A stretch of 52,389 bases of DNA. Origin: Thermodesulfobacteriota bacterium. GTDB lineage: Bacteria > Desulfobacterota > Desulfobacteria > Desulfobacterales > SURF-7. Below are positions 27,718-44,667 of the stretch, in pieces (the first letter of the stretch is position 1; the number at the start of each line of letters is the position of its first letter). Position numbers and translations under genes: made by a program. The notes beneath the pieces were generated by a model that was given only the letters and a program-made list of their open reading frames with translations, did no database searches and was not told the origin of the DNA. Location: assembly GCA_049320885.1 (NCBI GenBank), contig JBMORA010000057.1, positions 1 to 52,389 on the forward strand, in the 5' to 3' direction.

Positions 27718-27850
27718 AACAACAGTCGGAGCGCCACCAGGCACGCCCCCCAATTCTTTTATTATAGCATAAATTTCAATATGTTATCATAGTTCCTGCT
27801 GACACTTTTTAAGAATTATAAAGCTGTTTGGTATTTTATGATTTTTTTTC

Positions 27851-27879
27851 TTGACAAACCATATTTCAGGCTGTATAAC
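27851..27879 (+). promoter_or_regulatory. Putative sigma70 promoter of the filament locus
   Basis: TTGACA-17 bp-TATAAC in an AT-rich intergenic region. Confidence 0.65.
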
Positions 27880-27893
27880 TCATCTCAACAATG

Positions 27894-27906
27894 TGAACGA
27901 TGTTTA
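27894..27906. promoter_or_regulatory. Palindromic operator-like site, copy 1 (TGAACGATGTTTA)
   Basis: Two mismatches to the TAAACA-N-TGTTTA palindrome found at 29884 and 32243. Confidence 0.5.
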
Positions 27907-27952
27907 CGAGGTTTACGCAAGTTTAAGATTACAATCGACTGTAAAATTTTAC

Positions 27953-27981
27953 TTGATTTTTTCAAAAAACCATGCTAAACA
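27953..27981 (+). promoter_or_regulatory. Second putative sigma70 promoter
   Basis: TTGATT-17 bp-TAAACA with TG extended -10. Confidence 0.35.
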
Positions 27982-28160
27982 GAGTTCACCAAGCTCAATC
28001 GAGTTTCATATCAAGTACCTCGATTGAGAAACTGTACAAGGGCTTTATCATTATTAAGGTCTTTAATTTAGAAAAGGAGGTGATCGAAACTTAATAAAAG
28101 AGAGCGTTGATAGAATACGAAAACCCTTTTATTGATGTTTTTGCAACACCTTTTCAACCG

Positions 28161-28246
28161 TACCATAGTAAGAGCCAAACCACGGGTAACCGTGGGACGG
28201 AAAGCCGCGAGTCCACATGGGGTGGATAGTCGGGCTGCCTGTGGTA
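28161..28246 (+). ncRNA. c-di-GMP-I (GEMM-I) riboswitch aptamer
   Basis: P1 TACCATAG/CTGTGGTA; GCCAAAC; P2 CCACGG-GTAA-CCGTGG with GNRA loop; GACGGAAAG; P3 with TCCAC/GTGGA; GGGCTGCC end. Ends 36 nt upstream of the first filA-like start. Confidence 0.92.
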
Positions 28247-28282
28247 AGATAACCAACATCTTACTTTCAGGAGGAAAGACAA

Positions 28283-28927
28283 ATGAAAAAACTGGCAATT
28301 ATCCTGGCAATCATGATGATCCCCTTTAGCGCTTTCGCACTGGACACCATTTCAGACGCCGATCTGAATGACCTTACCGGTCAGGCTGGTGTGAGCATCT
28401 TCCTCAACACCATCCGCATTGAAAAATCAGTTTGGTACTCCGGATACGGCGATGAAGGCGAAACCGCTTTCGGCGCCAACACCAACTGGTTGCTCACCAG
28501 AACCGATGGCCAGACCCAGGAAATCTCCTTCCTCGGCTCCAGAACCCTGGACATCGACATCGTCTCCCGTACTGAGTTCACCAATGCGGTGGCCCTGGGT
28601 GCAGTTCCCGGCGTTCTTAATGCTGACGCGGCTCGTTTCGGCGGCCTGGAAATGTCCGCTCTGAACGAAAGCCACACCGCGGTATCCGACAGCGTCTCCG
28701 ACGTTGCGGTGGTCATCAGCTTGCCCAATGGAATTCAGATTGCCAACTTCGGCACCCACAAGACCATCATGCTGGGCCAGGCTTCCAATGCCACCCTGCA
28801 ACCTGAAACGGTTGTGAATGATGTTCTGATCAGAACCTACAGCGGCGGCGGCACCACCACCATCACCGGCGCTGGCGGAGCTGCGGCAGCCAACAACGTC
28901 CACATCGGCATCATGGCTCACGACTAA
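28283..28927 (+). CDS. Secreted FilA/DUF6160-like protein, candidate major filament subunit
   Basis: AGGAGG RBS; Sec signal MKKLAIILAIMMIPFSAFA; then LDTISDADLNDLTGQAGVSI motif; own riboswitch and terminator. Confidence 0.75.
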   Translation: MKKLAIILAIMMIPFSAFALDTISDADLNDLTGQAGVSIFLNTIRIEKSVWYSGYGDEGETAFGANTNWLLTRTDGQTQEISFLGSRTLDIDIVSRTEFTNAVALGAVPGVLNADAARFGGLEMSALNESHTAVSDSVSDVAVVISLPNGIQIANFGTHKTIMLGQASNATLQPETVVNDVLIRTYSGGGTTTITGAGGAAAANNVHIGIMAHD

Positions 28928-28968
28928 TCGACTCGCCACTGGCGGATTGTTTAGCGCAAGCGTAATTC

Positions 28969-29000
28969 AAAAGGTGGCGGGGCAACCCGCCACCTTTTTT
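28969..29000 (+). terminator. Intrinsic terminator
   Basis: AAAAGGTGGCGGG-GCAA-CCCGCCACCTTTTTT. Confidence 0.9.
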
Positions 29001-29090
29001 CTTTTCAAAACATGTTTTTTGAAGTAACGGTTAGACGGAACCTTTCGGCCGACCGGATGCCAACCGCACCCAGTCAGGTGGGATCTGCCA

Positions 29091-29765
29091 ATGAATAAGG
29101 TTTTGCAAATCAGCACCCTCGCCATACTTACATTGTTCTGGCCGGTCTTTACCATCGCGCTGGAGGCGCTTTCAGAAGATGAAATGTATGACACCTCCGG
29201 CCAGGCTAGCCCCACGGTTTCGATTAAATACAGCGATGATTTGACAGTGGATTATTTCAATCAGAACGTGGTGGTTTTCGAATCCAAGGGGGAAACCTCC
29301 ATCAGCTTTGATAAAGTTTACTACAAGGCCTCACCCGAAAGCACCACCTTCCTCGCCTTGGTTTGGCCCGACAGCGCTAAATTCATTCTAGAATTTGATA
29401 AATACCCGAATTACCCTCTGGGCATCGGCGTATCCGTTTCTGATATACTTCGAACCGGCCAGGACGGTAAACCCCTGTCCAAATTCTATGACCCGGGGGC
29501 GCCAGCCGCTCTTCCTGCCAACACCAGTTACCTGCGCACCAAACCGGCGCCCGCCACGGTTCGTACGGTCGCGAATAAATTTTATATTGCTCTGGCCAAA
29601 GGAGAAAGCGGCGTTGAAGGAGAACCGGATTGGGATGAGGCCGAAAAACACGGCAAACTGTTATACATTTATAATAGCGGTTCACAACGGATGGAAATTA
29701 TGGGATATGCATATGTTTGGGGGCGTGAAACCAGTTGGGGTTTGAAAAACCTGGGATCACGGTGA
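29091..29765 (+). CDS. Secreted protein with FilA/DUF6160-like N-terminal motif (divergent)
   Basis: Signal peptide then ALEALSEDEMYDTSGQAS. Confidence 0.65.
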   Translation: MNKVLQISTLAILTLFWPVFTIALEALSEDEMYDTSGQASPTVSIKYSDDLTVDYFNQNVVVFESKGETSISFDKVYYKASPESTTFLALVWPDSAKFILEFDKYPNYPLGIGVSVSDILRTGQDGKPLSKFYDPGAPAALPANTSYLRTKPAPATVRTVANKFYIALAKGESGVEGEPDWDEAEKHGKLLYIYNSGSQRMEIMGYAYVWGRETSWGLKNLGSR

Positions 29766-29789
29766 AGAATTGCCACCCAAAAAGTATGC

Positions 29790-29818
29790 TTGACTTTATC
29801 GTCGGTAAAGAGTATTAA
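29790..29818 (+). promoter_or_regulatory. Putative sigma70 promoter
   Basis: TTGACT-17 bp-TATTAA. Confidence 0.5.
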
Positions 29819-29883
29819 GGTGGACACAGGATCAGAAATATTACGGTTGACCTCGTAGTGTTTCTTTTTTTTGGCGAATGAAG

Positions 29884-29896
29884 TAAACAATGTTTA
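29884..29896. promoter_or_regulatory. Palindromic operator-like site, copy 2 (TAAACAATGTTTA)
   Basis: Perfect 6-1-6 palindrome, identical to the copy at 32243. Confidence 0.6.
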
Positions 29897-29940
29897 TAAC
29901 CGATAATATGGTTCCCAGGTCGAAGCGGGCAAATTGAACT

Positions 29941-31119
29941 ATGCGTTGTAATCCGACCATACAAATCAGGATCCTATTACCGATCTTCATATGGGCGATT
30001 CTATCGGTACCGCTTTCCCATGCCATTGAGGAATTGTCGGATATGGAGATGGAATCCATAACAGGTCAGGCAGGGGTCAGTATCTTTGTCACGACCATGA
30101 CCATCACCAATACCAATTCAAATTTTGTTATCTATGACACCGAGGGCGGTTCCATTGAATTCAGGCCGTTCACCTTGTCTCTCACCGCTGCTACAAGAAA
30201 TAAAACCTTTGATTTGGATTTATTTCATTATAATGAATGGTATGATGCGGAAACCACTTTTGTCGATACCTGGTCGGGGGGCACCCGCAATCTCACGGTC
30301 CAGCACCCGCTCTATGATCATGTCATTATCAACGGCTCCATTGAGAACATGGATCTGACCGTCAATGCATCCATGGACGATCTGTTTTTCAACAGCATCA
30401 ACATCGGCAAGCTGGATCTGACCAATCTGCGGGTTTCCGATGCCGCCATCAACGTGTTTCAACACAACGGCACCGGTATCGACGCCACGTTCAAAACCCG
30501 CTTCACCATCGACCAGATCGCCTACACCTACGACGACGAACAAAGCATTGACCCACGGGAACGCCTGCAATTCACCGGCATCACCGCCGCCGGCACCTTT
30601 GGCGGCGACCCCCTGCCGAGCTATGGGGATACCGTCAGTCCCGGTACCCCCATCAACACCGGAACCTGGACACCCACGGGGTATTTCGAAATCGGACAAC
30701 TCCAGCCGGTCTGGTCGTCGGCATTCGTCGATGACCCGCTTCTCCAGGACGATGCCCCCGAAGCGTCCCTGAATTCGTTCTCCATTGATTTCAAGGAAGA
30801 CAATTCTCCCTTCATCCGGCGGCAGTTCATCGTCGACTGGCAGGGCAACTACAACCCCGATCCGGACGGCTATATCGGTGACGGAACCACCACCCCGCAT
30901 ATTGCCAATGATCGGGAAAACGAAGTGTATGTCGATCTGGGGCTTCCGCTGAAAGGCTCCATCCGGTTTGAAACCAGTGTAAGATACTATGGCGGCGGAC
31001 CCGCCACCGAAGCGGATTACGGCCCTTCGGCCATCGACGGCATCAGCGGGTACACCCGCATCGAGGCCCCGGGATACGGGATTGGAAATTCACCCACGAC
31101 ATCAACATTATATGAATAG
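29941..31119 (+). CDS. Secreted FilA/DUF6160-like protein
   Basis: Signal peptide (..VPLSHA) then IEELSDMEMESITGQAGVSI; acidic, beta-rich body (IGKLDLTNL, YTYD). Confidence 0.72.
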   Translation: MRCNPTIQIRILLPIFIWAILSVPLSHAIEELSDMEMESITGQAGVSIFVTTMTITNTNSNFVIYDTEGGSIEFRPFTLSLTAATRNKTFDLDLFHYNEWYDAETTFVDTWSGGTRNLTVQHPLYDHVIINGSIENMDLTVNASMDDLFFNSINIGKLDLTNLRVSDAAINVFQHNGTGIDATFKTRFTIDQIAYTYDDEQSIDPRERLQFTGITAAGTFGGDPLPSYGDTVSPGTPINTGTWTPTGYFEIGQLQPVWSSAFVDDPLLQDDAPEASLNSFSIDFKEDNSPFIRRQFIVDWQGNYNPDPDGYIGDGTTTPHIANDRENEVYVDLGLPLKGSIRFETSVRYYGGGPATEADYGPSAIDGISGYTRIEAPGYGIGNSPTTSTLYE

Positions 31120-31145
31120 AGGCATACGATAAAACAGGCTGCCAT

Positions 31146-32057
31146 ATGGATTGGACCGTGAATCTCAGACATCGCTTATCGGGTTTCCGCAAAACAGGTA
31201 TCGTGACCTTCGCGATCCTGTCCCTGCTGGTTGCCGCACCGGTATCGGCGGAACTCTCACCGTTGAGCGACACGGAAATGGACACCATCACCGGCAGGCA
31301 GGGGTTGTCCGAATTCACCATCGAAGGCAATACTGCCCGGATATTTTTCGACATCCATGTTGAAACCTATATGGAGGTGGATTCCCTCAAACTGGGTTAT
31401 TATCAGAAATCGGATGCCGGTGTCGGCACCACCGGCGATTTGAACACCGCCAAATGGAGCGCCCTGGGAACCAAATCCTATAACAACAATTACGCCTATG
31501 TCCGTGAATTCGGGTCATCCGGACCCAACCTGTTTGAAGGCCTCCAGGGCGACGGCCAGAACATGAACACCCACGATTGGGACATCAACTGGGAAAATGT
31601 GAAACTCGGTAAAAGCAAAACCGAACCGTTGATCATCAACGGCCTCATCATGCAGGTTGAATTTGACGATATCAACGCCACCGATAAAAAATTGAAACGG
31701 GTGGTGATGGGTACCAACGACATGCAAGGGCAACTGAGCGCTGACATGCTGCGCACCACCGGTTTGATCAACCCGATGACCACCACGGACAGCCAGGCCC
31801 GGGCCCTTGCCAGCACCAATCCGGCCGACGGGAATCCGCTGCTCCTGAAACGCGACAGTCTCGGCAGCAACTGGGACAACTATGTTCTCAATGCCGGCGA
31901 TCACGATACCGGTTTCTGGGTTATCCTCAATTTCGGTTCCGGCCCCAGCGGTGAAACCGATCATATCGGCTGGGAGATCATCTCCGGATATGACGAACGG
32001 GCCGTCAACTTCAGTTACAAGGACGGCATCGAGAATGTCGACCTGTCCGGATATTAA
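31146..32057 (+). CDS. Secreted protein with FilA/DUF6160-like N-terminal motif
   Basis: Signal peptide (..APVSA) then ELSPLSDTEMDTITGRQG; IHVETYMEVDSLKLGYY...WDINWENVKLG. Confidence 0.68.
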   Translation: MDWTVNLRHRLSGFRKTGIVTFAILSLLVAAPVSAELSPLSDTEMDTITGRQGLSEFTIEGNTARIFFDIHVETYMEVDSLKLGYYQKSDAGVGTTGDLNTAKWSALGTKSYNNNYAYVREFGSSGPNLFEGLQGDGQNMNTHDWDINWENVKLGKSKTEPLIINGLIMQVEFDDINATDKKLKRVVMGTNDMQGQLSADMLRTTGLINPMTTTDSQARALASTNPADGNPLLLKRDSLGSNWDNYVLNAGDHDTGFWVILNFGSGPSGETDHIGWEIISGYDERAVNFSYKDGIENVDLSGY

Positions 32058-32164
32058 CCGACAACCAGCGGTTCCATCGAGCATTAATCCCATCCCCTGT
32101 GAACTCTTTCCCCATAAAGTTCTCAACCCTCCTGTTTTGATATACAATTCGACAATCTTCCTTC

Positions 32165-32195
32165 ATTCGTAATTCGTAATTCGCAATTCGCAATT
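32165..32195. repeat. Heptamer tandem repeat (AATTCGY)x~4.4
   Basis: attcgt aattcgt aattcgc aattcgc aatt, just upstream of the putative promoter. Confidence 0.8.
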
Positions 32196-32215
32196 GCCTT
32201 TCCCCGCTTTTTCTC

Positions 32216-32244
32216 TTGACTGGCAAACGCATTTTTTTTATATA
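32216..32244 (+). promoter_or_regulatory. Putative sigma70 promoter of the large surface-protein gene
   Basis: TTGACT-17 bp-TATATA. Confidence 0.5.
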
Positions 32245-32255
32245 AACAATGTTTA
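32243..32255. promoter_or_regulatory. Palindromic operator-like site, copy 3 (TAAACAATGTTTA)
   Basis: Perfect palindrome overlapping the putative -10/+1 region. Confidence 0.6.
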
Positions 32256-32339
32256 CACCCAAAATCCAACCAGGGACCGACCTGTTTGCCCCATCCAACC
32301 GGTGGTCTTGTGACATAATTGCCATGTAAGGATTGCACC

Positions 32340-35300
32340 ATGCGCCTTTTGCTAAACCAGAAAAAAATATATCCCCTTCTTGCCTGTCTGCTGCTGATTC
32401 TGTGCATGTTTCATCCCGCTTACGGCGGCGAACATGCTTTTCTGTATGACACAACCGAAGGCATGGTCGAACTGGGCACCCTGGGAGGCGACGAAAGCTT
32501 CGCGCTGGATATCAACAACAACGGTGCCGTGACTGGTTTCTCCAACCTGGCGGTGGGCGGTTCCAACGCCCATGCTTTTATATGGGTGGACAATATCAGC
32601 GGCGGTACCATGACCGACATCCATACGCTGACCGGCACGCAAAGCGTGGGCCGGGCCTTGAACGATTCCAACCAGGTCGTGGGTCAATTCCGAAACACCG
32701 CCGGGAAAGACCGGGCCTTTATTTGGGACAGCACCAACGGCATGCGGGATATCATCGGCACCCTCGGCGGCGACTCCAGCCAGGCATACGATATCAACAG
32801 TACCGGCCGCGTGGTGGGTTATTCCAAAACCGCCGGTGGATTCACCCATGCATTTATCTGGGACGAGGTGGGCGGAATCCGGGATATCGGCACCTTGACC
32901 GGGGGAACGGAAAGCTATGCCTATGGCATCAACAATTCCGGTCTTGTGGTTGGCTACTCTAATAAAACCGGCTCTTCCAGCACATTCTATCTGTTCACCT
33001 GGGACAGTTCCAACCCAGCCAATCCATTGGTGGACCGCGGCGTGATCATCGGCGAGCGTTTGAAAAACCTGGGAATCAATACCGCCGGACAGATCGGCGG
33101 TCACTACCTGGCCTCTTCCCCCAACTCCCATGGTTTCTTTTATAATGGTGCACTGACGGATATCGGCGTCCTGCCCGGCGACAACCGCAGCCTGGCCTTT
33201 GCCATCAACGATTCCGGAAGGGTCGTCGGCTATTCGCTGCCTTCCAACCATGGAATTCTCTGGGACGGCACCGGCGGACTGGTGGACTTCAGCGCCCCGT
33301 TCCTTGGCGGCGAGGACCGCTGTTTTGCCTACAGCATCAACAACAGCGGTCAGATCGTGGGGGCCAAAACCCCCAATGCCCCGCCGAACCCGCCGGTTTT
33401 TCTTTATCCCACGGACGGCGCCACCGGCATCGCCTTGACTGTCACCATCCAGACGGATGCCTTTTACGATCCGGACATGGATGACCCCACAACACCGGAC
33501 GACACCCACGGCCGGACCCGCTGGCAGATCAGTACCGTGCCGTTTGCCCCCCCCCCGACGGCCACCGATATGGTCATGGACATTACCAGCAGCACCCTGC
33601 TGACCTCTTTGACAGTACCCGTTTCCCTGCTGCGGGAAAACACCCGATATTATCTTCGTGCCTGCTTTTACGACAGCCGCGGGGCCCGCTCCGATTGGAC
33701 GGCCATTTCGTTCACAACGGCAACCATCGGCGACGACCTGCTGCCGAGCGGAGGCAACGGCGTACCGGACACCCAGGATGTGGATGCCACCGTGGATATG
33801 GATGCCAACAGTGTCCCGGATATCAACCAGACGGATCTCCGGGCGGTGAATACGCTCGTGGGCCAGGGCCGGATCGCCATCAAGCACCTTGCCAATGTCA
33901 CGGCCATCAACGGTTTCCGCTCCATTGATCCGGCAACCATTACCGATATGACCAATCGCCCGGAAATGATCCCCCTGGGCTTGATCAGCTGCCGCCTGGC
34001 GGTAACGACCCCGGGCGCCACGGCCCGGATAACCGTCTACCTCTCCGATCCGTCGCCCAACGGTGAATGGCATAAATACAATACCATTGACGGCTGGCAG
34101 AATTATACCTCCCATGCCGTATTCACCACTCCCGTTGAACTGACCCTGGAACTCCAGGACGGTGGTTTCGGTGACGCGGATGGCGCCGCCAACGGAGTCA
34201 TTATCGATCCCTCCGGATTCGCCTTCGCCGCTTCCCCCAATCCGCCTGCTACGCCGATTCCGGTTTCACCGGCAAACGGCGCCGTCAATGTGGATCTGGC
34301 GCCGACCCTGCAGACCGGACCATTCAATGATCCGGATGGCAACAGCCATTACCGTACGGAATGGGAAGTCAGTACGGATTCAGGTTTCAGCAGTCCGGTT
34401 TTCAGCTCCCGCACCACCACGGATCTGACAACCATCACCCTGCCGGAAGGAACCCTGGCCTCCTCGACCACCTATTACTGGCGGGTCCGGTTCACCGATA
34501 ACTATTATGCCGTCTCCAACTGGTCCGCGGTTTCCTCCTTTACAACCCTGAACATTCCTCCGGCCGCACCCGGGCCGGTTTCTCCGGCCGATGATGCCGT
34601 GGATGTGAGCCGCCTGCCGACCCTGACCACCGGAGCTTATTCCGATCCGGAAGGGAATCCTCATACCCAGACCCAATGGCAGCTCAGCCTGACGGAAGAT
34701 TTCGCAGCGCCCGCTTATGACCTTACCAGCAGCACGGATCTGACGACCCACACCGTACCCCTTGCGTCCATCCTGGACCGCGGCACCTTGTATTTCTGGC
34801 GGGTGCGCTTTTATGACGACCAGGGCAGCATATCGGACTGGTCCACGGTTTTCTCCTTCACCACAACCTCCAATACATTGCCGGAACAACCAAGCCCGGT
34901 GGCGCCGCTTGATGCGGCCGCGGATGTCGGCACGATGGCGAATCTTGAGGCTTCCGCTTACTCGGACCTGGACGGTGACAGCCATTTCCAGACCCAGTGG
35001 CAAATCAGCACCTCCTCCGACTTTTCCGCCCTTATCTTGGACGTCATAAGCGACACGCATCTGACAACACTAACGGTGCCGGATGTGGTGCTGAATGGCG
35101 GCGCCCTGTATTACTGGCGTACCCGCTATTACGACAACCAGATTCCGGCCGGTGAATCCGCCTGGTCGGCGGTTTTTTCCTTTACCACCACCGCCGACTC
35201 CGGTGACGCCAACGCCAACGGTATCCCGGACACCCAGGAAGTTTCCGGTCAAACGGATCTGGACGGAAACGGAACCCCGGATATCAACCAGAACGATATC

Positions 35301-38300: not shown

Positions 38301-38897
38301 GGAACCGATCCGAACGATCTCAATACAAACGGCATCCCGGATGCCCAGGAAGTGGATGCCGGGATTGACCTGGATGGGAACGGCACTGCGGACAACGCCC
38401 AGACGGATATCAAGTCCGTCAATACGATCATCGGCGGGGGCCAGATGGGGATTAAAGCCTCCACCAATGTCTTCTCCATCGATGCGATCCAATCCGTGGA
38501 CCCGGCGACATTGCCGGACGGTGGCGACGGCAAGCCGGCCAGCATGCCCCTCGGTATCCTGGACTTTCGCATTACCGTAACGACACCCGGGGATACCGCC
38601 CAGGTGGTCGTATATTTCTCCCAGGCCGCTCCGGCGGCCGAATGGTTCAAATATGATCCCATCAGCAGTTGGACGAATTATTCAAACCATGCCGTTTTCG
38701 CCGCCGATATGCTGTCCGTCACCTTGACATTGAAAGACGGCGCCTTCGGCGATGCAGACGGGGTTGCCAACGGAATCATTATCGATCCCTCCGGTCCTGG
38801 AAAGCTGGTAGTGGATCCGGTCAATCCCAGCCCGGGCGGCAGTGGAGATACGGACAGCGGCGGCGGATGCTTTATCAGCAGTATGCTGCATGACTGA
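32340..38897 (+). CDS. Large secreted repeat protein / putative adhesin: HAF repeats, 9 FN3-like modules, 5 choice-of-anchor-U-like domains, C-terminal GGGCFISS sorting motif
   Basis: Signal peptide; ~7 HAF-type repeats (GTLGG..S.A.DIN..G.VVG..HAFIW); P..P..SP...TQWQ.S...F...YYWR.R modules; five LT.xDG..GD.D...NG.I domains; Gly/Ser linker + GGGCFISS at the C-terminus. Start ATG 32340 preferred. Confidence 0.85.
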   Translation: MRLLLNQKKIYPLLACLLLILCMFHPAYGGEHAFLYDTTEGMVELGTLGGDESFALDINNNGAVTGFSNLAVGGSNAHAFIWVDNISGGTMTDIHTLTGTQSVGRALNDSNQVVGQFRNTAGKDRAFIWDSTNGMRDIIGTLGGDSSQAYDINSTGRVVGYSKTAGGFTHAFIWDEVGGIRDIGTLTGGTESYAYGINNSGLVVGYSNKTGSSSTFYLFTWDSSNPANPLVDRGVIIGERLKNLGINTAGQIGGHYLASSPNSHGFFYNGALTDIGVLPGDNRSLAFAINDSGRVVGYSLPSNHGILWDGTGGLVDFSAPFLGGEDRCFAYSINNSGQIVGAKTPNAPPNPPVFLYPTDGATGIALTVTIQTDAFYDPDMDDPTTPDDTHGRTRWQISTVPFAPPPTATDMVMDITSSTLLTSLTVPVSLLRENTRYYLRACFYDSRGARSDWTAISFTTATIGDDLLPSGGNGVPDTQDVDATVDMDANSVPDINQTDLRAVNTLVGQGRIAIKHLANVTAINGFRSIDPATITDMTNRPEMIPLGLISCRLAVTTPGATARITVYLSDPSPNGEWHKYNTIDGWQNYTSHAVFTTPVELTLELQDGGFGDADGAANGVIIDPSGFAFAASPNPPATPIPVSPANGAVNVDLAPTLQTGPFNDPDGNSHYRTEWEVSTDSGFSSPVFSSRTTTDLTTITLPEGTLASSTTYYWRVRFTDNYYAVSNWSAVSSFTTLNIPPAAPGPVSPADDAVDVSRLPTLTTGAYSDPEGNPHTQTQWQLSLTEDFAAPAYDLTSSTDLTTHTVPLASILDRGTLYFWRVRFYDDQGSISDWSTVFSFTTTSNTLPEQPSPVAPLDAAADVGTMANLEASAYSDLDGDSHFQTQWQISTSSDFSALILDVISDTHLTTLTVPDVVLNGGALYYWRTRYYDNQIPAGESAWSAVFSFTTTADSGDANANGIPDTQEVSGQTDLDGNGTPDINQNDIKSFNTLLGEAGIGVKGANSISAVTAAKSVDPAAITDATGRPAVIPLGLFGFRATTVNPGDTGEIQLYLSIPLPSTAWYAYDTVSGWQDLSSRIAFSPGNTLATLTIQDGGIGDADGAANGAIVHLGCFGYPVSNPPDQPLTVSPLNGASGVSLSPSLETGPFTDPDLNMHFSTQWQVSTDPLFATTDYSTASLTALTLLAVPEGTLSSNTTYYWRARYYDADCAVSAWSTTVSFTTLNLPPVSPILAAPADTTTEVSRIPALSTDGTYSDPEGNPHAQTQWQICATDDFTTPVYDLTSNTDLTTHTVPVASILNRTTLYYWRARFIDDQGSLSSWSAVFSFTTTANTPPDQPTLVSPADASIDANTTPILQTNAFTDLDGDTHLMTDWQISTASDFANLLYNNQSSGNLTSISIPDMILNGGSLYYWRARHYDNQTPSGVSPWSLPFTFTTVNQAADINANGIPDTQEVPAYVDLDADGTPDINQIDIKSVQTLVGGGRIGVKTAGGVTGISSAKSVDPTSITDTTSRPEVMPIGLIGFKAAVAAPGDTGTVTVYLSDPAPISAWYHYSADSGWLDLSSQAVFNAERDMVTLTIQDGGTGDADHIANGVIVHLGGFGFAASSPPEQPALSSPANGTVDESLSPALAAGAFTDPEGNSHYRTQWQVSTASDFSSLVMDINTTIHLTQITIPATVLNQNTLYYWRVRYTDNYYAVSSWSAAFTFTTILTNDDANADSVPDLLELDPAIDMDVDLDNNDTADLGQTDIKCLQSLVGVFGNEMIGVKQTADVTGILRINSIDPAGIADTAGRPGVLPFGLISMKLAVVNAGQNAQVEIYFSDPAPLSAWYTYDTVDGWRDMTHLATFSADRKTVTLTIQDGGYGDHDGATNGMIVHTGGFGFPASANAPAVPGIAVPGDGSLTPALQAGAFADLDGDSHFKTHWQVSTTDNFSTLVLDRITGPVTSLAIPYGMLTAGTTYYWRAQFYDNYYTASGWPVAAGFTTGTDPNDLNTNGIPDAQEVDAGIDLDGNGTADNAQTDIKSVNTIIGGGQMGIKASTNVFSIDAIQSVDPATLPDGGDGKPASMPLGILDFRITVTTPGDTAQVVVYFSQAAPAAEWFKYDPISSWTNYSNHAVFAADMLSVTLTLKDGAFGDADGVANGIIIDPSGPGKLVVDPVNPSPGGSGDTDSGGGCFISSMLHD

Positions 38898-38899
38898 GG

Positions 38900-39004
38900 A
38901 AAAAGTTGCAACACTAACATACTGTAACGTCTGATGAGCGCCCGGGAAGATCGGAATTCATATCTTTCCAAATTCTCAGGGCGTTCCCGGGTGTGCAACT
39001 TTTT
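38900..39004. repeat. Nested intergenic inverted repeat (~105 bp)
   Basis: AAAAAGTTGCA (38900-38910) / TGCAACTTTTT (38994-39004), with inner CCCGGGAA (38941-48) / TTCCCGGG (38984-91). Confidence 0.6.
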
Positions 39005-39039
39005 TCTTTACAATTTATTGGCTAATTGATATAGACACT

Positions 39040-39052
39040 TAAACAGTGTTCA
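39040..39052. promoter_or_regulatory. Palindromic operator-like site, copy 4 (TAAACAGTGTTCA)
   Basis: One arm mismatch to TAAACA-N-TGTTTA; ~50 bp upstream of the C39 peptidase start. Confidence 0.55.
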
Positions 39053-39099
39053 TTGCAGTTAATCAAGTTTGTAGATCGTTTCCCGGAGTTGCCCAACAT

Positions 39100-39843
39100 A
39101 TGGAAATTTTTCTTATCTTCCTTCTCATTGTCGGTCTGGTAGGCGGGGAAGATATGGCCACGGAAACACCCCAGGGCGAGATACGCTTGTATCCGGAAGT
39201 CAACAGCCTGACGGTCATCAGACCGGTGGTCAAGCCCCTCTCGGATATCCTGGATGACCGCATCATCCGGCAGGAATTCGATTACAGCTGCGGATCAGCG
39301 GCCCTTTCCACTTTATTGAATTTCTATCTGGGTGAAAAACTGTCCGAGCGCCAGGTTATTCATGGTCTTCTGCGTTATGGAGACAGCGAGCAGATCGCGG
39401 AGCGACGCGCCTTCTCGTTGCTGGACATGAAAAAATTCGTCACCGTGCTGGGATACAAAGGGGTTGGCTATAAAGCGGAAATCACGGACCTGGAAGAGCT
39501 CGGGAAACCCTGTATTCTGCCGATCAAGGTCTTCGGATATAGGCATTTTACTGTTTTTAAAGGTATTTATAAAGGACACGTCTTCCTGGCCGACCCCTGG
39601 AAAGGGCATTCCAGTTACACCCTTTCGGAATTCAAGGACATCTGGTACGAAAACGTGCTGTTTGTCGTATATCCGGAAGGCGGGAAAGAATTGGACGCCC
39701 TGCGTCTCAAGGAATCGGACCTGCGGTTCATCGATGAGGACACGACTTTTTATTATCTTTTCCGGCAGCCGCCGTTGTTGAGTATTCCTGAAAGGCAGAT
39801 CGATGATATTCCGGGAACATTGCAATATTATAAACGACACTAA
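39100..39843 (+). CDS. Stand-alone secreted C39 family cysteine peptidase (FilB/FapD-like)
   Basis: RQEFDYSCGSAAL (Gln/Cys), RRAFSLLDMK, YRHFTVFKG (His), LADP (Asp); hydrophobic N-terminus from ATG 39100; no ABC transporter domains. Confidence 0.9.
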   Translation: MEIFLIFLLIVGLVGGEDMATETPQGEIRLYPEVNSLTVIRPVVKPLSDILDDRIIRQEFDYSCGSAALSTLLNFYLGEKLSERQVIHGLLRYGDSEQIAERRAFSLLDMKKFVTVLGYKGVGYKAEITDLEELGKPCILPIKVFGYRHFTVFKGIYKGHVFLADPWKGHSSYTLSEFKDIWYENVLFVVYPEGGKELDALRLKESDLRFIDEDTTFYYLFRQPPLLSIPERQIDDIPGTLQYYKRH

Positions 39844-39894
39844 AGCAGTAACCAGTATCCGGCGAGGCTGGAATCAATTCAGGAGGCGGCCCGT

Positions 39895-41853
39895 ATGAAG
39901 GATAACAGGGGGAACATGATAAAACAATCTGGAACGCTACTCGTCATCCTATGGACGATATTTTTCGCCGCGCCACCCATTTGGATCCCGGAAGGTCTGG
40001 CGGAAGAGTTATCAAATGAACTCGCGGCCACTGAAAATCCTCGGGCAACCGTGTCCCCGAAAAAAACAGCCACCTCCCCCACGGGTTATGCGATCCAGAC
40101 AGGTGTATTCCTGATAATGGAAAACGCCCGTCAAATGATGACGAATCTGCGCATGAAAGGATATGAACCATATATCTTTCAAACGGTTAACGATAAAAAG
40201 CAGAAACTGTATGTGGTCAGAATCGGTGACTATCGCACCCTGCGCCAGGCCTCATCCGCGGCTGATCAGTTCAAGAACCTGGAGCATCTGCCGGCGGTGA
40301 TCACGCCCATCAACTCCACCAAGGCCGTCGATACCCCTCTTTACCTGACAACAGCTTCCAAAAACGGCGTCATTTCAACAGAGGAACTATCGGAAATCGA
40401 CGGCGGCACCGGCTCGCTGATCGATTCCGAAGAACTAGCCACCATCGACGGTCAAACCGGCGCCATCCTGCAAACCGATGAATTATCGCAAATCGCCGCC
40501 CAGAGCGGTACCGTCATTACCACCGACGAAATGGCCGTTGTGGACGGCAGAACCGGAACGATCATACCGGCGGATGAAATGGCCACGGTGGACGGCCGGA
40601 CCGGCACGGTGGTGTCGCCCGGCGAACTGGCCACAGTTGATGGCCGGACCGGCACGGTGGTGCCTTCCGGTGAGCTGGCCACCGTGGACGGCCAAACCGG
40701 TCAGGCCATCCCCAAGGGGGACCTTTCTAAAATCCGCGCCCAGTCGGCGGGGGTGTCCTTTTCCCCGGCCGATGACGCCGAACCATTCGTCTTTTCACAA
40801 AAAGCCACGAAAGAGGATGCACCTCAGGAAGACGATCCGTTCGGCATCTCCTCGGAACAGGAAGGAGGAGGACAAGGAATCGATAACGCCACGGCCCGAC
40901 AGCTGAAAGACCAGATCGAAGCCCTGCAGGAAAAAGTCAACGAACTCCGGGAAGAAGCCGACGTCCGTAAAATTCTGGAAATCACCGAAGAGGAAAAGCA
41001 GGAGGAAGAAGAGGAAATTCTCTCCGCCACGGGCCGTGACTACACCATGGCCAAAAAGGGCAGCATTGGTTTTGATTACGGTCTTTCCTATACCTACAAC
41101 TCCTTTGATGCCATCGAGGATGCCGCCAACTTGACCAAGATCGAGCATCGCGCCCAGCATAATGTCACTAATTCCCTTGGGCTTGTCTACGCCGTGCGCG
41201 ACAATGTCTCCTTCGGCGCCAACATCCCCTTTGTTTACAGTTATGACAGCATGGGAACGGAATCCCCGAAAAAGGTCACGGACATCGGCGATGTCTCCCT
41301 CAGTCTTCAGTGGCAACCTCTCAAGGCAGGGGGCAGTCTGCCGCCGGGAATCCTCAGCTTCAGCTTCACCATGCCCAGCGGTCGAAGCCCCTATGAAATC
41401 AACCCGGAGGAAGAACTCTCAACCGGCTCAGGCCTGAAAAGTCTGTCAGCAGGATTATCCTTGAATCATCCCATGGATCCGGTGGTGACTTATGGCGGTA
41501 TCACCTACGGATATTCGCTGCCACTGGAAAATCTGGACTCCCAGCGCTACGGCGACATTCTCACGGAGGTCCATCCCGGCCAATCCATCGGCATCAGGCT
41601 TGGTCTCGGTTACGCTCTCTCGTATCAGTTGAACATGAACCTCAACCTGAGTTATTCGTACCAATTCGGAGCCGAGTATGTTTATCGATACAGCGGCATC
41701 CAACCATCGGCGGATTCGGCCAGCGCGAATTTCAGTATCGGCACTGGTTGGCGGATCTCACCCACCAGGTCTCTGAACATATCGCTTTCAAAAGGGTTGA
41801 GCAATGACGCGTCGGATTTTTCACTGGGCCTGTCCGTCCCCTTCAATTTCTAG
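39895..41853 (+). CDS. Outer-membrane transporter (FilC/FapF-like barrel) fused to a SPOR domain, 16-aa repeats and a coiled coil
   Basis: AGGAGG RBS; signal peptide; SPOR-like YAIQTGVF..ENA...L..KGY...LYVVRIG.Y; coiled coil (QLKDQIEALQEKVNELRE); barrel motifs IGDVSLSLQWQP, PSGRSPY, STGSG, DPVV.YG; terminal SVPFNF. Confidence 0.82.
   Translation: MKDNRGNMIKQSGTLLVILWTIFFAAPPIWIPEGLAEELSNELAATENPRATVSPKKTATSPTGYAIQTGVFLIMENARQMMTNLRMKGYEPYIFQTVNDKKQKLYVVRIGDYRTLRQASSAADQFKNLEHLPAVITPINSTKAVDTPLYLTTASKNGVISTEELSEIDGGTGSLIDSEELATIDGQTGAILQTDELSQIAAQSGTVITTDEMAVVDGRTGTIIPADEMATVDGRTGTVVSPGELATVDGRTGTVVPSGELATVDGQTGQAIPKGDLSKIRAQSAGVSFSPADDAEPFVFSQKATKEDAPQEDDPFGISSEQEGGGQGIDNATARQLKDQIEALQEKVNELREEADVRKILEITEEEKQEEEEEILSATGRDYTMAKKGSIGFDYGLSYTYNSFDAIEDAANLTKIEHRAQHNVTNSLGLVYAVRDNVSFGANIPFVYSYDSMGTESPKKVTDIGDVSLSLQWQPLKAGGSLPPGILSFSFTMPSGRSPYEINPEEELSTGSGLKSLSAGLSLNHPMDPVVTYGGITYGYSLPLENLDSQRYGDILTEVHPGQSIGIRLGLGYALSYQLNMNLNLSYSYQFGAEYVYRYSGIQPSADSASANFSIGTGWRISPTRSLNISLSKGLSNDASDFSLGLSVPFNF
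40369..40752 (+). repeat. Eight in-frame 48-nt (16-aa) tandem repeats resembling double-glycine leader peptides
   Basis: VISTEELSEIDGGTGS / LIDSEELATIDGQTGA / ILQTDELSQIAAQSGT / VITTDEMAVVDGRTGT / IIPADEMATVDGRTGT / VVSPGELATVDGRTGT / VVPSGELATVDGQTGQ / AIPKGDLSKIRAQSAG. Confidence 0.88.
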
Positions 41854-41868
41854 CGGCGAGCGCACATC

Positions 41869-43647
41869 ATGACCAGCAGAGGACAAGATACCCAACAACC
41901 ATCTCCGACTGAAATCCTCTTCCGGATTGCGACCGTATTTGTCTATCTATTCCTGTTCGCGCCCGTTGTCACTTTTGCGGCATTCAACGAACAGATGGTG
42001 GTGGATCCCATTTCCATTGCCTTGGGCAACTCCGTCACCGCCCGGCCCCCTGGGATTGCCTCCCTGCATTTCAATCCTGCCGGTTTGACCAAACTGCCCG
42101 AGGGCAAATTGAAAGGCAGCGGTCTTACGGTCGCCCGGACGGTTCGAAAGGTGACCACCTATCCGGATCAGAATTTCGGCGGCTTCATGAACACCTTCGG
42201 GCCAGCGGAAAAAGGCATGCGGCCCGACCCCTGCTGGGGCGTGGAAGGCACCAGCACCAGTACGGATTTGTTCATACCCATCAAGGGCGCCATTCATTTC
42301 GATCCCTTTCTGGCCCTGCCGACATCCACCCAGGCCTACACCAAACCCGGCTCCCGATGGTCCTTTGCCCGTGGCGTCATCTCACCGTTTTCCGGAGGCT
42401 TTTCCCACAAAATCAACAATGACCCGAACATGTTCTTTGCCCGGGAACTCTATTCCCAGCGAATCAATTATCTGTCTCCAGGAGTGGGATACCGGGTCAG
42501 CGACCAGTTTTCCGTCGGGCTGACCGTGGCTGCGGGGATGACCAACTTCGGCGTCAAGGGTTTCCGCCGCAGCCCGAGCCATATGACCGCCCTCACCAAA
42601 ATCCTCGGCGAAGCGACCAGGACTTTGAACATCCCGATCATCTCCCAGGAAACCCTTCCGCCTCCCTGGTTCGGCGGTGGCATCAGTCCCTGGGAACCGG
42701 TGATGGAAATGCAGGTCCGCATGAACGACTGGTTCAGCCCCAGCTACAACATCGGCGCCCTGTGGGAACCGAATCAGTATATCTCTTTCGGCGCGGTCTA
42801 TCAAAGTGAAATCCGCAATGAAATGACCGGCGACTACATGTTTTCCTATACCCCGCCCTTCAGGAGCATGATCGACTGGTTCGGCTCATCACCCCTGCTG
42901 CAAATCCAATCCGCCATTCTGGACCTTCCCACCCAGTCCGTTCCGTACCAGAAAGGCACAGTGGTGTCGGAATACAGTTTCCCCCAGCGCGTGCAGGCCG
43001 GCGTCATGCTGTCGCCATTCAAAAAAATGCGTCTGCTCTGCGATGTCCACTGGGCGGACTGGTCGGTCTGGCCGGCCATGGAGCTCCATTTCGACCAGGA
43101 CATCCAGGCCCTGAGGCTGGCCAAACTCTCTGGTCACACCCACGGCAACCGGACCGTTGTATCAGAAACCGGCCTTCACGACACCTTTCACTGGAGTTAC
43201 GGTCTGGAATACGACCTGTCCAATGTTCTGTGCCTGAGACTGGGTTATGAAGACCGCCAGTCATCCGTCAATATTCAAGATTTCAGCCTCTCCAGCCTGC
43301 CGGACATTAAAAAATACGGTGTCGGCGTCGGCGTCAAGATGAAAAACGGCGCCACCCTGGATGTGGGCTACTCCTATGCCGACACCGGCGATTACTGGGT
43401 CCCCAATGACACCAGCGTCAACCTCAACTCCCTCCGATTCACCAAAACCTCCCAAAGTCAATACGCCGGCTCCCATGTCAAATTCCGGTTTTTCGCCCAT
43501 CTGTTCAGTTTCGCCATCACCAAACCGGTGACGGTTCCGGAAGAAACCGCTGTCCGCAAAGCGGATAAATTCAAAAAGCTGAAACAGAACCTGAAATTCA
43601 CCATGGAAAAGCTGAAGTCTTCCCTGAATCCGTTTAAAAAGAATTAA
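41869..43647 (+). CDS. FadL/OmpP1-family outer-membrane protein (FilD-like)
   Basis: IALGNSVTARPPGIASLHFNPAGL plug motif, SYNIGALWEP, DVHWADWS, LRLGYEDR. Confidence 0.85.
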   Translation: MTSRGQDTQQPSPTEILFRIATVFVYLFLFAPVVTFAAFNEQMVVDPISIALGNSVTARPPGIASLHFNPAGLTKLPEGKLKGSGLTVARTVRKVTTYPDQNFGGFMNTFGPAEKGMRPDPCWGVEGTSTSTDLFIPIKGAIHFDPFLALPTSTQAYTKPGSRWSFARGVISPFSGGFSHKINNDPNMFFARELYSQRINYLSPGVGYRVSDQFSVGLTVAAGMTNFGVKGFRRSPSHMTALTKILGEATRTLNIPIISQETLPPPWFGGGISPWEPVMEMQVRMNDWFSPSYNIGALWEPNQYISFGAVYQSEIRNEMTGDYMFSYTPPFRSMIDWFGSSPLLQIQSAILDLPTQSVPYQKGTVVSEYSFPQRVQAGVMLSPFKKMRLLCDVHWADWSVWPAMELHFDQDIQALRLAKLSGHTHGNRTVVSETGLHDTFHWSYGLEYDLSNVLCLRLGYEDRQSSVNIQDFSLSSLPDIKKYGVGVGVKMKNGATLDVGYSYADTGDYWVPNDTSVNLNSLRFTKTSQSQYAGSHVKFRFFAHLFSFAITKPVTVPEETAVRKADKFKKLKQNLKFTMEKLKSSLNPFKKN

Positions 43648-43652
43648 ATAGT

Positions 43653-43681
43653 TTGACATCTGCCGGAAGGAATTCTATATT
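43653..43681 (+). promoter_or_regulatory. Putative sigma70 promoter upstream of the riboswitch array
   Basis: TTGACA-17 bp-TATATT. Confidence 0.65.
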
Positions 43682-43809
43682 GCAGATGGACAAATGGACT
43701 CCTTGGAGTTCCTCCAAAACACGGATTTGTTCTTTGACAAGCTGCCGGGAAACCATGCCTGTTCTTTGATATAAAAGAGACCAGACATGGGTAAAAGAGT
43801 AACCAGCAC

Positions 43810-43877
43810 GCCAAACCATGGGTAACCATGGGACGGAAAGCCACGGGTCCTGACAGCCTCAGGATAGCCGGGTTGCC
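43810..43877 (+). ncRNA. c-di-GMP-I riboswitch aptamer core, tandem copy 1 of 4
   Basis: GCCAAAC; P2 CCATGG-GTAA-CCATGG; GACGGAAAG; P3 tip TCCTGA-CAGCC-TCAGGA; GGGTTGCC end; flanking P1 TAACCAG/CTGATTA. Confidence 0.92.
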
Positions 43878-43905
43878 TGATTATAGAACTGAACCGTTTT
43901 TTTTA

Positions 43906-43970
43906 GCCAAACCATGGGTAACCATGGGACGGAAAGCCACGGGTCCTGACCCCAGGATAGCCGGGTTGCC
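43906..43970 (+). ncRNA. c-di-GMP-I riboswitch aptamer core, tandem copy 2 of 4
   Basis: Same core; P3 tip shortened by 3 nt (TCCTG-ACCC-CAGGA) with pairing retained. Confidence 0.9.
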
Positions 43971-44000
43971 GGAATTGTCTATAACAGATTTTTACAACTA

Positions 44001-44068
44001 GCCAAACCACGGGTAACTGTGGGACGGAAAGCCACGGGTCCTGACAGCCTCAGGATAGCCGGGTTGCC
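44001..44068 (+). ncRNA. c-di-GMP-I riboswitch aptamer core, tandem copy 3 of 4
   Basis: Same core; P2 carries pairing-preserving changes (CCACGG-GTAA-CTGTGG). Confidence 0.9.
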
Positions 44069-44079
44069 TCCTTCTCAAT

Positions 44080-44147
44080 GCCAAACCATGGGTAACCATG
44101 GGACGGAAAGCCACGGGTCCTGACAGCCTCAGGATAGCCGGGTTGCC
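44080..44147 (+). ncRNA. c-di-GMP-I riboswitch aptamer core, tandem copy 4 of 4
   Basis: 68-nt core identical to copy 1; ends 13 nt before the GAAGGGAG RBS. Confidence 0.92.
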
Positions 44148-44175
44148 TGTGAGTTTCACAGAAGGGAGAATGAAT

Positions 44176-44667
44176 ATGAAAAAACGTAGTTTCCTTATGG
44201 CAGCAATTATTTGGGCATTCGCACTGTTAGCAACCCCCCAGACCGGTAATGCGAAACTGATGGAAATGTCCGATGCGGATTTAAATGAGATCACCGGCCA
44301 GGCCGGCTTCTCGATTCAAGCCGGTGAAATGATCGGCCTGCATATCGAAAGCGAAGCCTTTACCTGGGCGAATCCGGATTCCGTTGGGCCGGACGGCTTA
44401 CCCGCCGCTCTTACCTTCGCGGATACGACCCTGAACGGGTGGATCTCGTCTCCGAACGGCATGAACATCGACTTCATCACCGAACAAACGGCGGCAGGCA
44501 ACAATGTCACCGCTCTCAGCATCAACATGCAGGACATGACGGTTGCAATCGATGATTTCAAAACCAATATCAAACTGGGGGATTCCAGCCTTGGTGTTTT
44601 CGGCATCCAAGGATTGCGTGCCCAAATTTCAGGAAACGTGCGTATATACACCCGCAGCGATATGTAA
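44176..44667 (+). CDS. Secreted FilA/DUF6160-like protein (short)
   Basis: GAAGGGAG RBS 7 nt before ATG 44176; signal peptide (..TGNA); KLMEMSDADLNEITGQAGFSI; C-terminal IKLG..SLGVFGIQGL...ISGNVRIY. Confidence 0.78.
   Translation: MKKRSFLMAAIIWAFALLATPQTGNAKLMEMSDADLNEITGQAGFSIQAGEMIGLHIESEAFTWANPDSVGPDGLPAALTFADTTLNGWISSPNGMNIDFITEQTAAGNNVTALSINMQDMTVAIDDFKTNIKLGDSSLGVFGIQGLRAQISGNVRIYTRSDM

Follow-up and report, generated by a model that had tools for sequence, protein, structure and literature searches.

A block of nine genes, all in one orientation (+ strand) between 28.0 and 44.7 kb of a 52,389-nucleotide stretch of a Desulfobacterales genome (contig JBMORA010000057.1, assembly GCA_049320885.1; hereafter the window), raises the question of what surface structure it builds and how its products are matured, exported and controlled. 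The genes encode, in order, four secreted proteins with a common leader (S1 to S4), a giant repeat protein, a stand-alone C39 cysteine peptidase, an outer-membrane barrel fused to a SPOR domain, a FadL-type barrel and a fifth leader-bearing protein, S5 (Table 1). A preliminary description had proposed a Fil/Fap-like filament system under the control of cyclic diguanylate (c-di-GMP) riboswitches, and all the elements that it named were found on the same strand. Our analysis indicates that the locus probably builds a c-di-GMP-gated surface fibre of the Fil (DUF6160) type, whose subunits the C39 peptidase would mature in the periplasm. The locus is a real and conserved variant, expanded and under riboswitch control, of a pilus system of the Fil type that is itself poorly characterised, and the proposed mechanism is well motivated.

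Fil and Fap export is among the least understood Gram-negative routes to a surface fibre, and the substrate of FapD-type C39 peptidases has been open since the work on FapF and FapD, as far as the sections of that study covered here go (PMC5557850). No paper that connects DUF6160 leaders with cutting by C39 turned up in literature searches, and those on the FilA-FilF names, on FapF, FapD, C39 and riboswitches, and on thick pili returned nothing on mechanism. The present locus offers a testable answer: a double-glycine-type leader behind a Sec signal, and a homologous solved pilus that starts at the predicted cut.

A leader behind the Sec signal and its counterpart in a solved pilus

The five signal-peptide proteins with a shared N-terminal motif that had been noticed before were all recovered by a hidden Markov model (HMM) of the motif. 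Run on the 27,683 open reading frames (ORFs) of the genome, the model returned S1 to S5 and one extra copy on contig C29 (E 4e-13 to 8.5e-9). The motif is an amphipathic leader of about 15 residues, h-S-D/E-x-E/D-L/M-x-x-I/V-T-G/A-Q, which stands behind the Sec-type signal (judged by eye in S1 to S5) and not at the extreme N-terminus. In S1, the leader ...ISDADLNDLTGQ gives a predicted mature start at A35; in S5, the leader ...MSDADLNEITGQ gives one at A43. Among 130 unique motif-bearing proteins, the columns are almost fixed at -12 (L/M/I/V, 99%), -7 (L/M, 100%), -2 (G/A, 99%) and +2 (G, 96%), position -1 is Q in 81%, and L/M, S/T, D/E, E/D, V/I and T/S are found at -15, -11, -10, -8, -4 and -3, respectively. 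Double-glycine leaders have hydrophobic residues at -15, -12, -7 and -4, S at -11, E at -8 and G at -2. The spacing is the same, Q standing where the last G would be.

A solved filament points to the same boundary. PDB entry 9xfv is "pilus-like-alpha", an environmental filament determined by cryo-electron microscopy (rise 11.70 Å, twist 283.86 degrees); the source study employs it as a standard for handedness and, in the passages covered, mentions no genes for its assembly (PMC12956863). When PDB sequences were searched with a leader-motif protein from a syntenic Fil-type locus of Burkholderiales (L081) as query, chain 9xfv_A was matched (E 1.8e-15). The family profile of that protein matched the chain at E 1.1e-40, and every homologue in the family carries the Pfam domain DUF6160 (PF19657, cut-off 27 bits). 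The precursor from L081 consists of a 22-residue signal and the leader MTLVNDEGLAQVSGQ, followed by DGVSI.... The solved chain takes in the profile positions from the one directly following G36-Q37 to the C-terminal ...WAH. Residue numbers in 9xfv start at 38, which equals the 22-residue signal plus the 15-residue leader.

The S1 family is related to this pilin family (hhalign probability 97.4%, E 1.6e-11, leader included). For the AlphaFold2 (AF2) model of S5, 9xfv_A was the top Foldseek match in the PDB, although a weak one (E 3.9e-3, TM 0.34); in VIA-align, the two superposed over 92 residues (Z 4.5, root-mean-square deviation (rmsd) 4.0 Å), the alignment beginning with A43, which directly follows Q42. 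Against PDB sequences, the S1-family profile had a chance match only (E 1.8), as had the S5 sequence and a second Burkholderiales motif protein (chance-level matches), and the S1 model had no Foldseek match in the PDB at E<=0.001. The earlier statement that no experimental description of such a system exists is softened by this DUF6160 pilus and by the Fil fimbriae and the FilA surface-fibre protein reported in Acinetobacter sp. Tol 5, as described in the parts of the sources covered here (PMC3498257, PMC11784438).

Table 1. Features of the Fil-type locus, in window coordinates
Feature	Position	Strand	Basis
Sigma-70-like promoter candidate, S1 transcript	28024..28051	+	TTGAGA-16-TATCAT, 10/12, consensus match only
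Single c-di-GMP-I (GEMM-I) aptamer, S1 leader	28165..28243	+	RF01051 62.1 bits; own model 89.1 bits
S1, DUF6160 pilin-like subunit candidate, 214 residues	28283..28927	+	DUF6160 40.5 bits
Predicted intrinsic terminator directly after S1	28969..28998	+	13-bp stem, 8 GC pairs, T-run
S2, leader-bearing secreted protein, 224 residues	29091..29765	+	Leader HMM 35.8 bits, E 8.5e-9
S3, leader-bearing secreted protein, 392 residues	29941..31119	+	DUF6160 35.1 bits
S4, leader-bearing secreted protein, 303 residues	31146..32057	+	Leader HMM 49.6 bits; DUF6160 23.6 bits, below cut-off
Repeat surface protein, 2192 residues	32319..38897	+	Signal peptide; HAF, Ig-like and choice-of-anchor-U domains
Stand-alone C39 cysteine peptidase (FilB/FapD-like)	39046..39843	+	Peptidase_C39 61.2, FilB 201.3, FapD 105.3 bits
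FilC/FapF-like outer-membrane barrel with N-terminal SPOR	39895..41853	+	SPOR 42.8, FilC 188.5, FapF 75.3 bits
Eight 16-residue leader-mimic repeats in FilC, residues 159-286	40369..40752	+	Regular expression; TRF
FilD, FadL/Toluene_X-type outer-membrane barrel	41869..43647	+	Toluene_X 128.4, FilD 270.5 bits
Sigma-70-like promoter candidate, S5 transcript	43653..43681	+	TTGACA-17-TATATT, 11/12, consensus match only
c-di-GMP-I aptamer 1 of 4, S5 leader	43801..43881	+	RF01051 67.3 bits; own model 91 bits
c-di-GMP-I aptamer 2 of 4, S5 leader	43897..43974	+	RF01051 65.3 bits; own model 87 bits
c-di-GMP-I aptamer 3 of 4, S5 leader	43992..44070	+	Own model 82 bits, E 5.6e-22; RF01051 64.2 bits at 43991-44071
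c-di-GMP-I aptamer 4 of 4, S5 leader, contiguous with aptamer 3	44071..44151	+	RF01051 67.2 bits
CCUCCUUCUC, putative anti-Shine-Dalgarno element, aptamer 3/4 junction	44067..44076	+	CCUCC conservation; minimum-free-energy fold
S5, small DUF6160 subunit candidate, 163 residues	44176..44667	+	DUF6160 33.1 bits

The peptidase and the outer-membrane barrels

The C39 peptidase and the FadL-like barrel of the preliminary description were both identified by library models (Table 1). The match to the Acinetobacter filABCD locus that had been proposed also held: FilB, FilC and FilD were the best NCBIfam matches of the three export proteins, while FilA matched by its N-terminal part only. We read the three as distant homologues on the strength of these profile scores. 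The parallel with Fap stands as a kinship of the export parts, with FapD and FapF as second-best matches, below the Fap equivalog cut-offs (105.3 against 330 and 75.3 against 700 bits). No FilE- or FilF-named match appeared in the Pfam and NCBIfam scans of the nine proteins, in which no search was aimed at those two. The catalytic residues Q76, C82, H167 and D183 of the peptidase (265-residue numbering) are invariant in 10 orthologs. Since the 10 orthologs align from MEIF... onwards, the ATG at 39100 is probably its real start.

Of the coiled-coil and barrel transporter that had been described, the barrel and its SPOR fusion were borne out, whereas the coiled coil was judged by eye only. The SPOR domain (PF05036, cut-off 21 bits) covers FilC residues 62-132, and the NCBIfam FilC alignment covers barrel residues 326-651. 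Between them lie eight exact repeats of 16 residues with the pattern [ED][LM]xx[IV][DT]G[QR]xG. A repeat such as VITTDEMAVVDGRTGT aligns column by column with a subunit leader such as TISDADLNDLTGQAGV, and the last one runs into ...AQSAGVSF, which resembles the mature start AGVSIF. A regular expression for the leader matched 8 times in 150 residues of FilC, compared with 0.05-0.06 times per 1000 residues in background ORFs. None of 2000 shuffled versions had more than one match, and two was the highest number in the remaining ORFs of the genome; TRF detected a 48-nucleotide period across the DNA of the repeats. Seven to eight copies, with the motif positions kept, are present in FilC of two genera (the window with genomes G001 and G002, and loci L021 and L022). 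Among the 41 other distinct FilC sequences listed, the repeats were absent apart from one single match to the expression. We read the array as a place where the peptidase would dock or meet pseudo-substrates.

These elements suggest the following route. S1 to S5 would cross the inner membrane by Sec, and the cut by signal peptidase would leave the leader of about 15 residues on each subunit. The periplasmic C39 peptidase would then read the leader as one of the double-glycine type and cut after G-Q, and the mature subunits, starting with A-G-V/F-S-I, would leave through a trimeric FilC barrel, helped by the FadL-like FilD, and polymerise outside. The SPOR domain would tether FilC to peptidoglycan, and the eight repeats are probably docking sites, beneath the channel, for either the peptidase or the leader, which suggests how peptidase and pore couple. 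More speculatively, and with a probability that we rate as low, the FilC channel might be coupled to leader processing itself: as pseudo-substrate docking sites on the SPOR-anchored periplasmic arm of FilC, the repeats might hold many copies of C39 or hand leaders over right below the pore, so that the G-Q cut and threading are concerted, with S5 set by the near-digital switch of four aptamers described below. If true, such processing would be a previously undescribed, two-membrane-independent, "leader-gated" route of pilus assembly.

The leader could instead be retained, as a FilC docking helix or a polymerisation strand, with the C39 protein acting on the FilC repeat linker or as a non-cleaving chaperone. 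The leader-like repeats of FilC and the Q at -1 where a G would be expected speak for such a role. In the passages of PMC5557850 covered here, FapD is periplasmic, active and required for secretion. That the target of FapD is not known there, and that the linker of FapF may undergo processing, would also fit. The solved 9xfv chain, however, begins exactly after G-Q, at entry residue 38, and the catalytic residues of C39 are invariant; we regard retention of the leader as quite improbable.

The same gene pair could belong to a functional amyloid of the Fap type, in which cross-beta subunits would be exported by homologues of FapD and FapF. The FapD and FapF scores and the pairing of a C39 gene with a barrel gene are what this explanation has in its favour. 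The FilB and FilC scores are about twice the Fap scores, however, a FadL-like FilD is present, and S1 to S5 matched no Fap subunit family at E<=0.01 in Pfam and NCBIfam (the presence of FapB/C models in those libraries was not confirmed). The homologue of known structure forms a helical, ordered pilus (rise 11.70 Å), and the AF2 models of S1 (pLDDT 82) and S5 (pLDDT 86.3) are confident globular beta folds. We give an amyloid very little credence, and retain processing by C39 before assembly of a DUF6160 fibre as the preferred explanation.

Conservation of the locus

A C39 ortholog was detected in 14 of 41 related genomes searched, the genome of the window (G000) included, and in 12 of 30 good-quality genomes. 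A C39 profile scan yielded 74 loci, 55 of them with a Fil-type C39 (>=140 bits) and 42 with C39, FilC and FilD together. Conserved synteny in relatives had been set beforehand as a test that could refute the preliminary description, and these 42 loci display it. One to five motif-bearing genes are also present in 38 of the 42 complete loci, and the order subunit(s)-C39-FilC-FilD is the same in the window and in the printed gene maps of related loci. Most of 17 incomplete loci are short contigs. Complete loci reach the Gamma- and Betaproteobacteria and include Kistimonas, Oceanobacter, a metagenome-assembled genome (MAG) of Alcanivoracaceae and Burkholderiales MAGs. Loci of Brevundimonas and Halomonas have C39 with a weak FapF-like match only, and those of Campylobacterota have C39 alone. 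Twelve of the 74 loci have a FilC with a SPOR domain. Among the sulfate-reducing Desulfobacterales, where the formation of biofilms and aggregates matters ecologically, the system is widespread. At the end of one contig with a Fil-type locus, a group II intron domain was also found (L027, 15067-15231; RF02001, 71.5 bits).

Riboswitches and transcription units

Control by c-di-GMP RNA turned out stronger than had been stated. Riboswitches are indeed present at the first and last genes, but the last one has four aptamers and not one, and all five aptamers of the window (62.1-67.3 bits) lie well above the RF01051 gathering score of 35 bits. Aptamer 3 was missed in a first Rfam pass, which listed three before S5, because of overlap removal, and was recovered when the stretch was searched alone. 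The start of S5 at 44098 in the ORF list falls inside aptamer 4, and the start at 44176 was used. Five of the six RF01051 matches of the genome are within this locus. The sixth (C44:36605-36690 of G000, locus L115) precedes a gene for a 258-residue secreted protein with a PEP-CTERM-type tail.

We take G20, A47 and C92 (Vc2 numbering) to be the nucleotides in contact with the ligand. Aptamers 3 and 4 carry G, A and C at these positions and the other three have the same core, so c-di-GMP is the expected ligand of what are, by sequence, five canonical c-di-GMP-I aptamers. Rfam also offered the variant labels c-di-GMP-I-GGC (RF03167) and c-di-GMP-I-UAU (RF03168) at marginal scores (61-68 bits against cut-offs of 59 and 65.9). 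We rejected both: the first position is G and not U and the third C and not U as "UAU" would have it, and the middle one is A and not G as in "GGC". PMC5737381 does not name c-di-GMP-I variants. The S1-type leaders of two other loci (L021 19162-19240, L025 9989-10084) have A for G at the G20-equivalent position, a change associated with GEMM-I variants that respond to cyclic GMP-AMP in the parts of PMC9481103 covered here.

Our own aptamer model, built from 26 aptamers and run on the 74 loci, gave 56 matches in 23 loci, and 55 of the 56 share a strand with a motif-bearing gene and lie 42-430 nucleotides upstream of it. It found no aptamer in the gamma- and betaproteobacterial loci. Arrays of four aptamers before an S5-type gene occur in the window and 10 other loci (count by core pattern), and CCUCC is present at the aptamer 3/4 junction in all 11. 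A fifth, degenerate copy (CUAAACC...GGGACAGAAAGCC) is paired with a regular aptamer in L055 (15617-16016), L057 (15691-16088), L060 (15562-15907) and L072 (15453-15847), suggesting that arrays are built of two-aptamer units joined by the CCUCC element.

In the minimum-free-energy fold, the junction element, which would act as an anti-Shine-Dalgarno (anti-SD) sequence, pairs with the ribosome-binding site at 44161-44169. Similarly, the 3' tail CCUG of the S1 aptamer can pair with the ribosome-binding site CAGG in a fold of the segment after the aptamer. In both leaders, there is overlap between the sequestering strand and the helix that closes the aptamer, which favours an ON switch; we lean towards a direction in which binding of c-di-GMP frees the ribosome-binding site. 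With four aptamers acting on a single output, the response of S5 would be steep and nearly digital. No terminator-like site was detected on the + strand between the S5-leader aptamers, the T-run after aptamer 1 having only a weak stem by eye.

S1 and S5 would form separate transcription units, each led by its riboswitch, and would likely be the abundant subunits: S1 has its own predicted terminator, with a hairpin that the two other genomes of the genus have also retained, and S5 its own promoter candidate. Contigs from environmental RNA libraries, taken from runs of four studies, point to the same two genes as expressed subunits. One contig of 756 nucleotides covers 28205-28960 around S1 with 0 differences (run X4), and two of 536 (X13) and 525 nucleotides (X4), both from 44120 and with 0 differences, cover S5, a gene outside the query that chose the runs. 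For S3, pieces of 216-224 nucleotides with 2-3 differences were found. Besides these, no long piece fell within 28948-43297, an absence that can neither rank genes nor show silence.

The leader-bearing proteins

PF19657 scored above its cut-off in three of the five proteins (S1, S3 and S5), which by this profile evidence are members of the DUF6160 family and not FilA orthologs; S2 had no Pfam match. With these results, the HMM checks suggested earlier for DUF6160, Peptidase_C39, Toluene_X and SPOR all returned matches in the window proteins. S1 has 76 homologues, and I210 and H213 in its C-terminus ...IGIMAHD are nearly invariant among the 68 aligned. The ending h-x-h-[A/P]-H of the solved pilin recurs in many motif-bearing proteins, S1 included. 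Orthologs of S2 are syntenic in 6 loci and those of S3 are present in related loci. The body of S4 is the most widely conserved of the five, with relatives in most Desulfobacterales loci, often adjoining the C39 gene. For S5, a word-indexed homologue search yielded only 8 proteins, and the exhaustive search used instead gave a family of 556 representatives at E<=1e-3.

Two further observations concern these families. Six proteins of 584-770 residues (P0253, P0263, P0264, P0274, P0285 and P0286) each contain 4-6 stretches of the S5 type, the beta domain being tandem-repeated as well. The extra motif-bearing gene of the genome (C29:43622-44311 of G000, locus L002) lies away from the locus and encodes a paralog 72% identical to S1 that likewise ends in ...IGIMAHD; neither Rfam nor our own aptamer model found a riboswitch there.

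Several points weigh against a C39-matured DUF6160 fibre. The FilA to FilD scores are far under the NCBIfam cut-offs (28.7/220, 201.3/475, 188.5/630 and 270.5/970), which are of the narrow "exception" type. Position -1 of the leader is Q in most of the 130 proteins and not G, A or S, and we know of no C39 enzyme that cuts after Q. 9xfv is a distant homologue of the window proteins, and its N-terminus could reflect disorder instead of processing. The S1 model superposes poorly on it (Z 4.5, rmsd 8.8 Å), and in VIA-align over 48,161 PDB chains none reached Z>=5 with that model. The predicted complex of C39 (residues 58-265) with S1 (21-100) supports the pairing only weakly: its median score was 0.39 (runs 0.28, 0.45 and 0.39; best of 3 controls 0.00) and the runs agree in >=30% of contacts, but partner pLDDT is as low as 38-40. 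Of 157 solved complexes, 116 reach the mark that it passed, as do 2 of 215 mismatched pairs; passing scores of 0.60 or less are found in just 18 of the 157 solved complexes and include both passing mismatches. The switch direction was derived from minimum-free-energy folds only, and RNA-library contigs cannot prove transcription, transcript ends or expression levels. For these proteins, we infer cleavage, secretion and fibre formation, and hence the fibre of this organism, rather than having observed them.

The mature bodies of S1 to S5 themselves belong to this side of the balance. Once the leader was removed, hhalign found no convincing homology in any pair; the S1 family against the 9xfv family fell to a probability of 27.7%, and the other pairs ranged from 0.1 to 43%. 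The "five subunit paralogs" of the preliminary description therefore hold as a module of signal and leader and not as mature bodies, and five pilins are not established: homology among the leaderless parts could not be demonstrated, and some of the five may be cargo that does not polymerise. Taken to its end, this argument would make the locus a leader-dependent, two-step secretion system for diverse exoproteins, in which Sec signal and leader together are a sorting tag that takes unrelated cargo through FilC and FilD, and only some products, if any, polymerise. The number (1-5 per complete locus) and the lengths (about 130-510 residues) of motif-bearing proteins agree with that, as does the existence of long proteins with S5-like stretches. 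It is harder to reconcile with the C-terminal h-x-h-[A/P]-H that S1-type and many other motif-bearing proteins share with the solved pilin, with the S1 and S5 models both picking 9xfv, weakly, and with FilA being reported as a fimbrial subunit in the Tol 5 sources as far as covered here. We consider pure secretion unlikely, and continue to favour a fibre built of DUF6160 subunits.

The giant repeat protein and the upstream genes

The giant repeat surface protein of the preliminary description was recognised by its domains in the Pfam and NCBIfam scans (4 HAF repeats, 5 Ig_Rha78A_N and 5 choice-of-anchor-U stretches). It has no leader motif. The protein is confined to three genomes of the genus of the window, and occurs in 2 of the 74 loci, both of that genus; it would be a genus-specific adhesin cargo or passenger. 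Its tail, SGGGCFIxSM[ML](H)[DN] (window 38850-38897), follows a Gly-rich linker, is kept in the 3 orthologs of the genus, is unique in the genome and is too short for a membrane helix.

Upstream, between 10545 and 27717 (+ strand), lie genes for five multi-pass membrane proteins with C-terminal tetratricopeptide repeats (TPRs), a protein combining major facilitator superfamily, spermidine-synthase-like and TPR parts, GT1 and GT2 glycosyltransferases and an acyltransferase. The N-terminal halves of the TPR proteins have no Pfam family; Atlas features of their membrane domain resemble glycosyltransferases of the PMT_2/TMTC type, which we take as a lead only. Homologues of these upstream genes adjoin Fil-type loci in at least 9 other loci (L104, L105, L037, L042, L036, L048, L051, L067 and L069), and in the sister genome G002 (L042, 14667-16910) a TPR membrane protein of this type lies inside the locus, between FilD and the S5 leader. 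The array may glycosylate the fibre or the adhesin.

Comparison with known systems

The closest known system is the Acinetobacter Fil locus (NF050077-NF050080), which has the same order of genes with a DUF6160/FilA-type N-terminus, a stand-alone C39 FilB, FilC and a FadL-like FilD. The window differs from it by its five leader-bearing genes and 2192-residue repeat protein, by scores far below the cut-offs, by the SPOR domain and eight leader look-alikes of its FilC, and by riboswitches on two genes. Fap of Pseudomonas also has a periplasmic C39 peptidase beside a plugged barrel with a periplasmic extension, in the passages of PMC5557850 covered here. Unlike Fap, the window has an additional FadL-like barrel and an explicit leader of the double-glycine kind, its proteins match no Fap-type subunit at E<=0.01, and the solved relative of its subunits is a helical pilus and not an amyloid. 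That pilus, 9xfv, shares with the window the DUF6160 family, a start after the leader G-Q and an end in ...WAH comparable to ...MAHD of S1; it differs in being a distant relative, with no sequence match to the S1 profile and weak structural matches (Z 4.5).

In class II bacteriocins, the double-glycine leaders and the C39 domains of ATP-binding cassette transporters that contain a peptidase (PCAT) recall the window by the spacing of the leader columns and by the type of cysteine peptidase. In the window, by contrast, the leader follows a Sec signal and has Q at -1, and the peptidase is stand-alone, predicted to be periplasmic and not fused to an ABC exporter.

Several complete GEMM-I aptamers in one 5' leader of a surface-protein gene are also known from the triple tandem Bc3-5 of Bacillus thuringiensis. 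A steep response is expected of tandem c-di-GMP-I riboswitches in the parts of PMC9481103 and PMC4759541 covered here, and a c-di-GMP-I survey counts 347 doublets and 12 triplets, with no quadruplet mentioned in its passages covered (PMC9481103). The S5 leader of the window has no terminator-like site between its aptamers. The window adds to Bc3-5 and the surveyed tandems a conserved array of four aptamers, with five in some relatives, the last two of which abut at a conserved junction anti-SD element.

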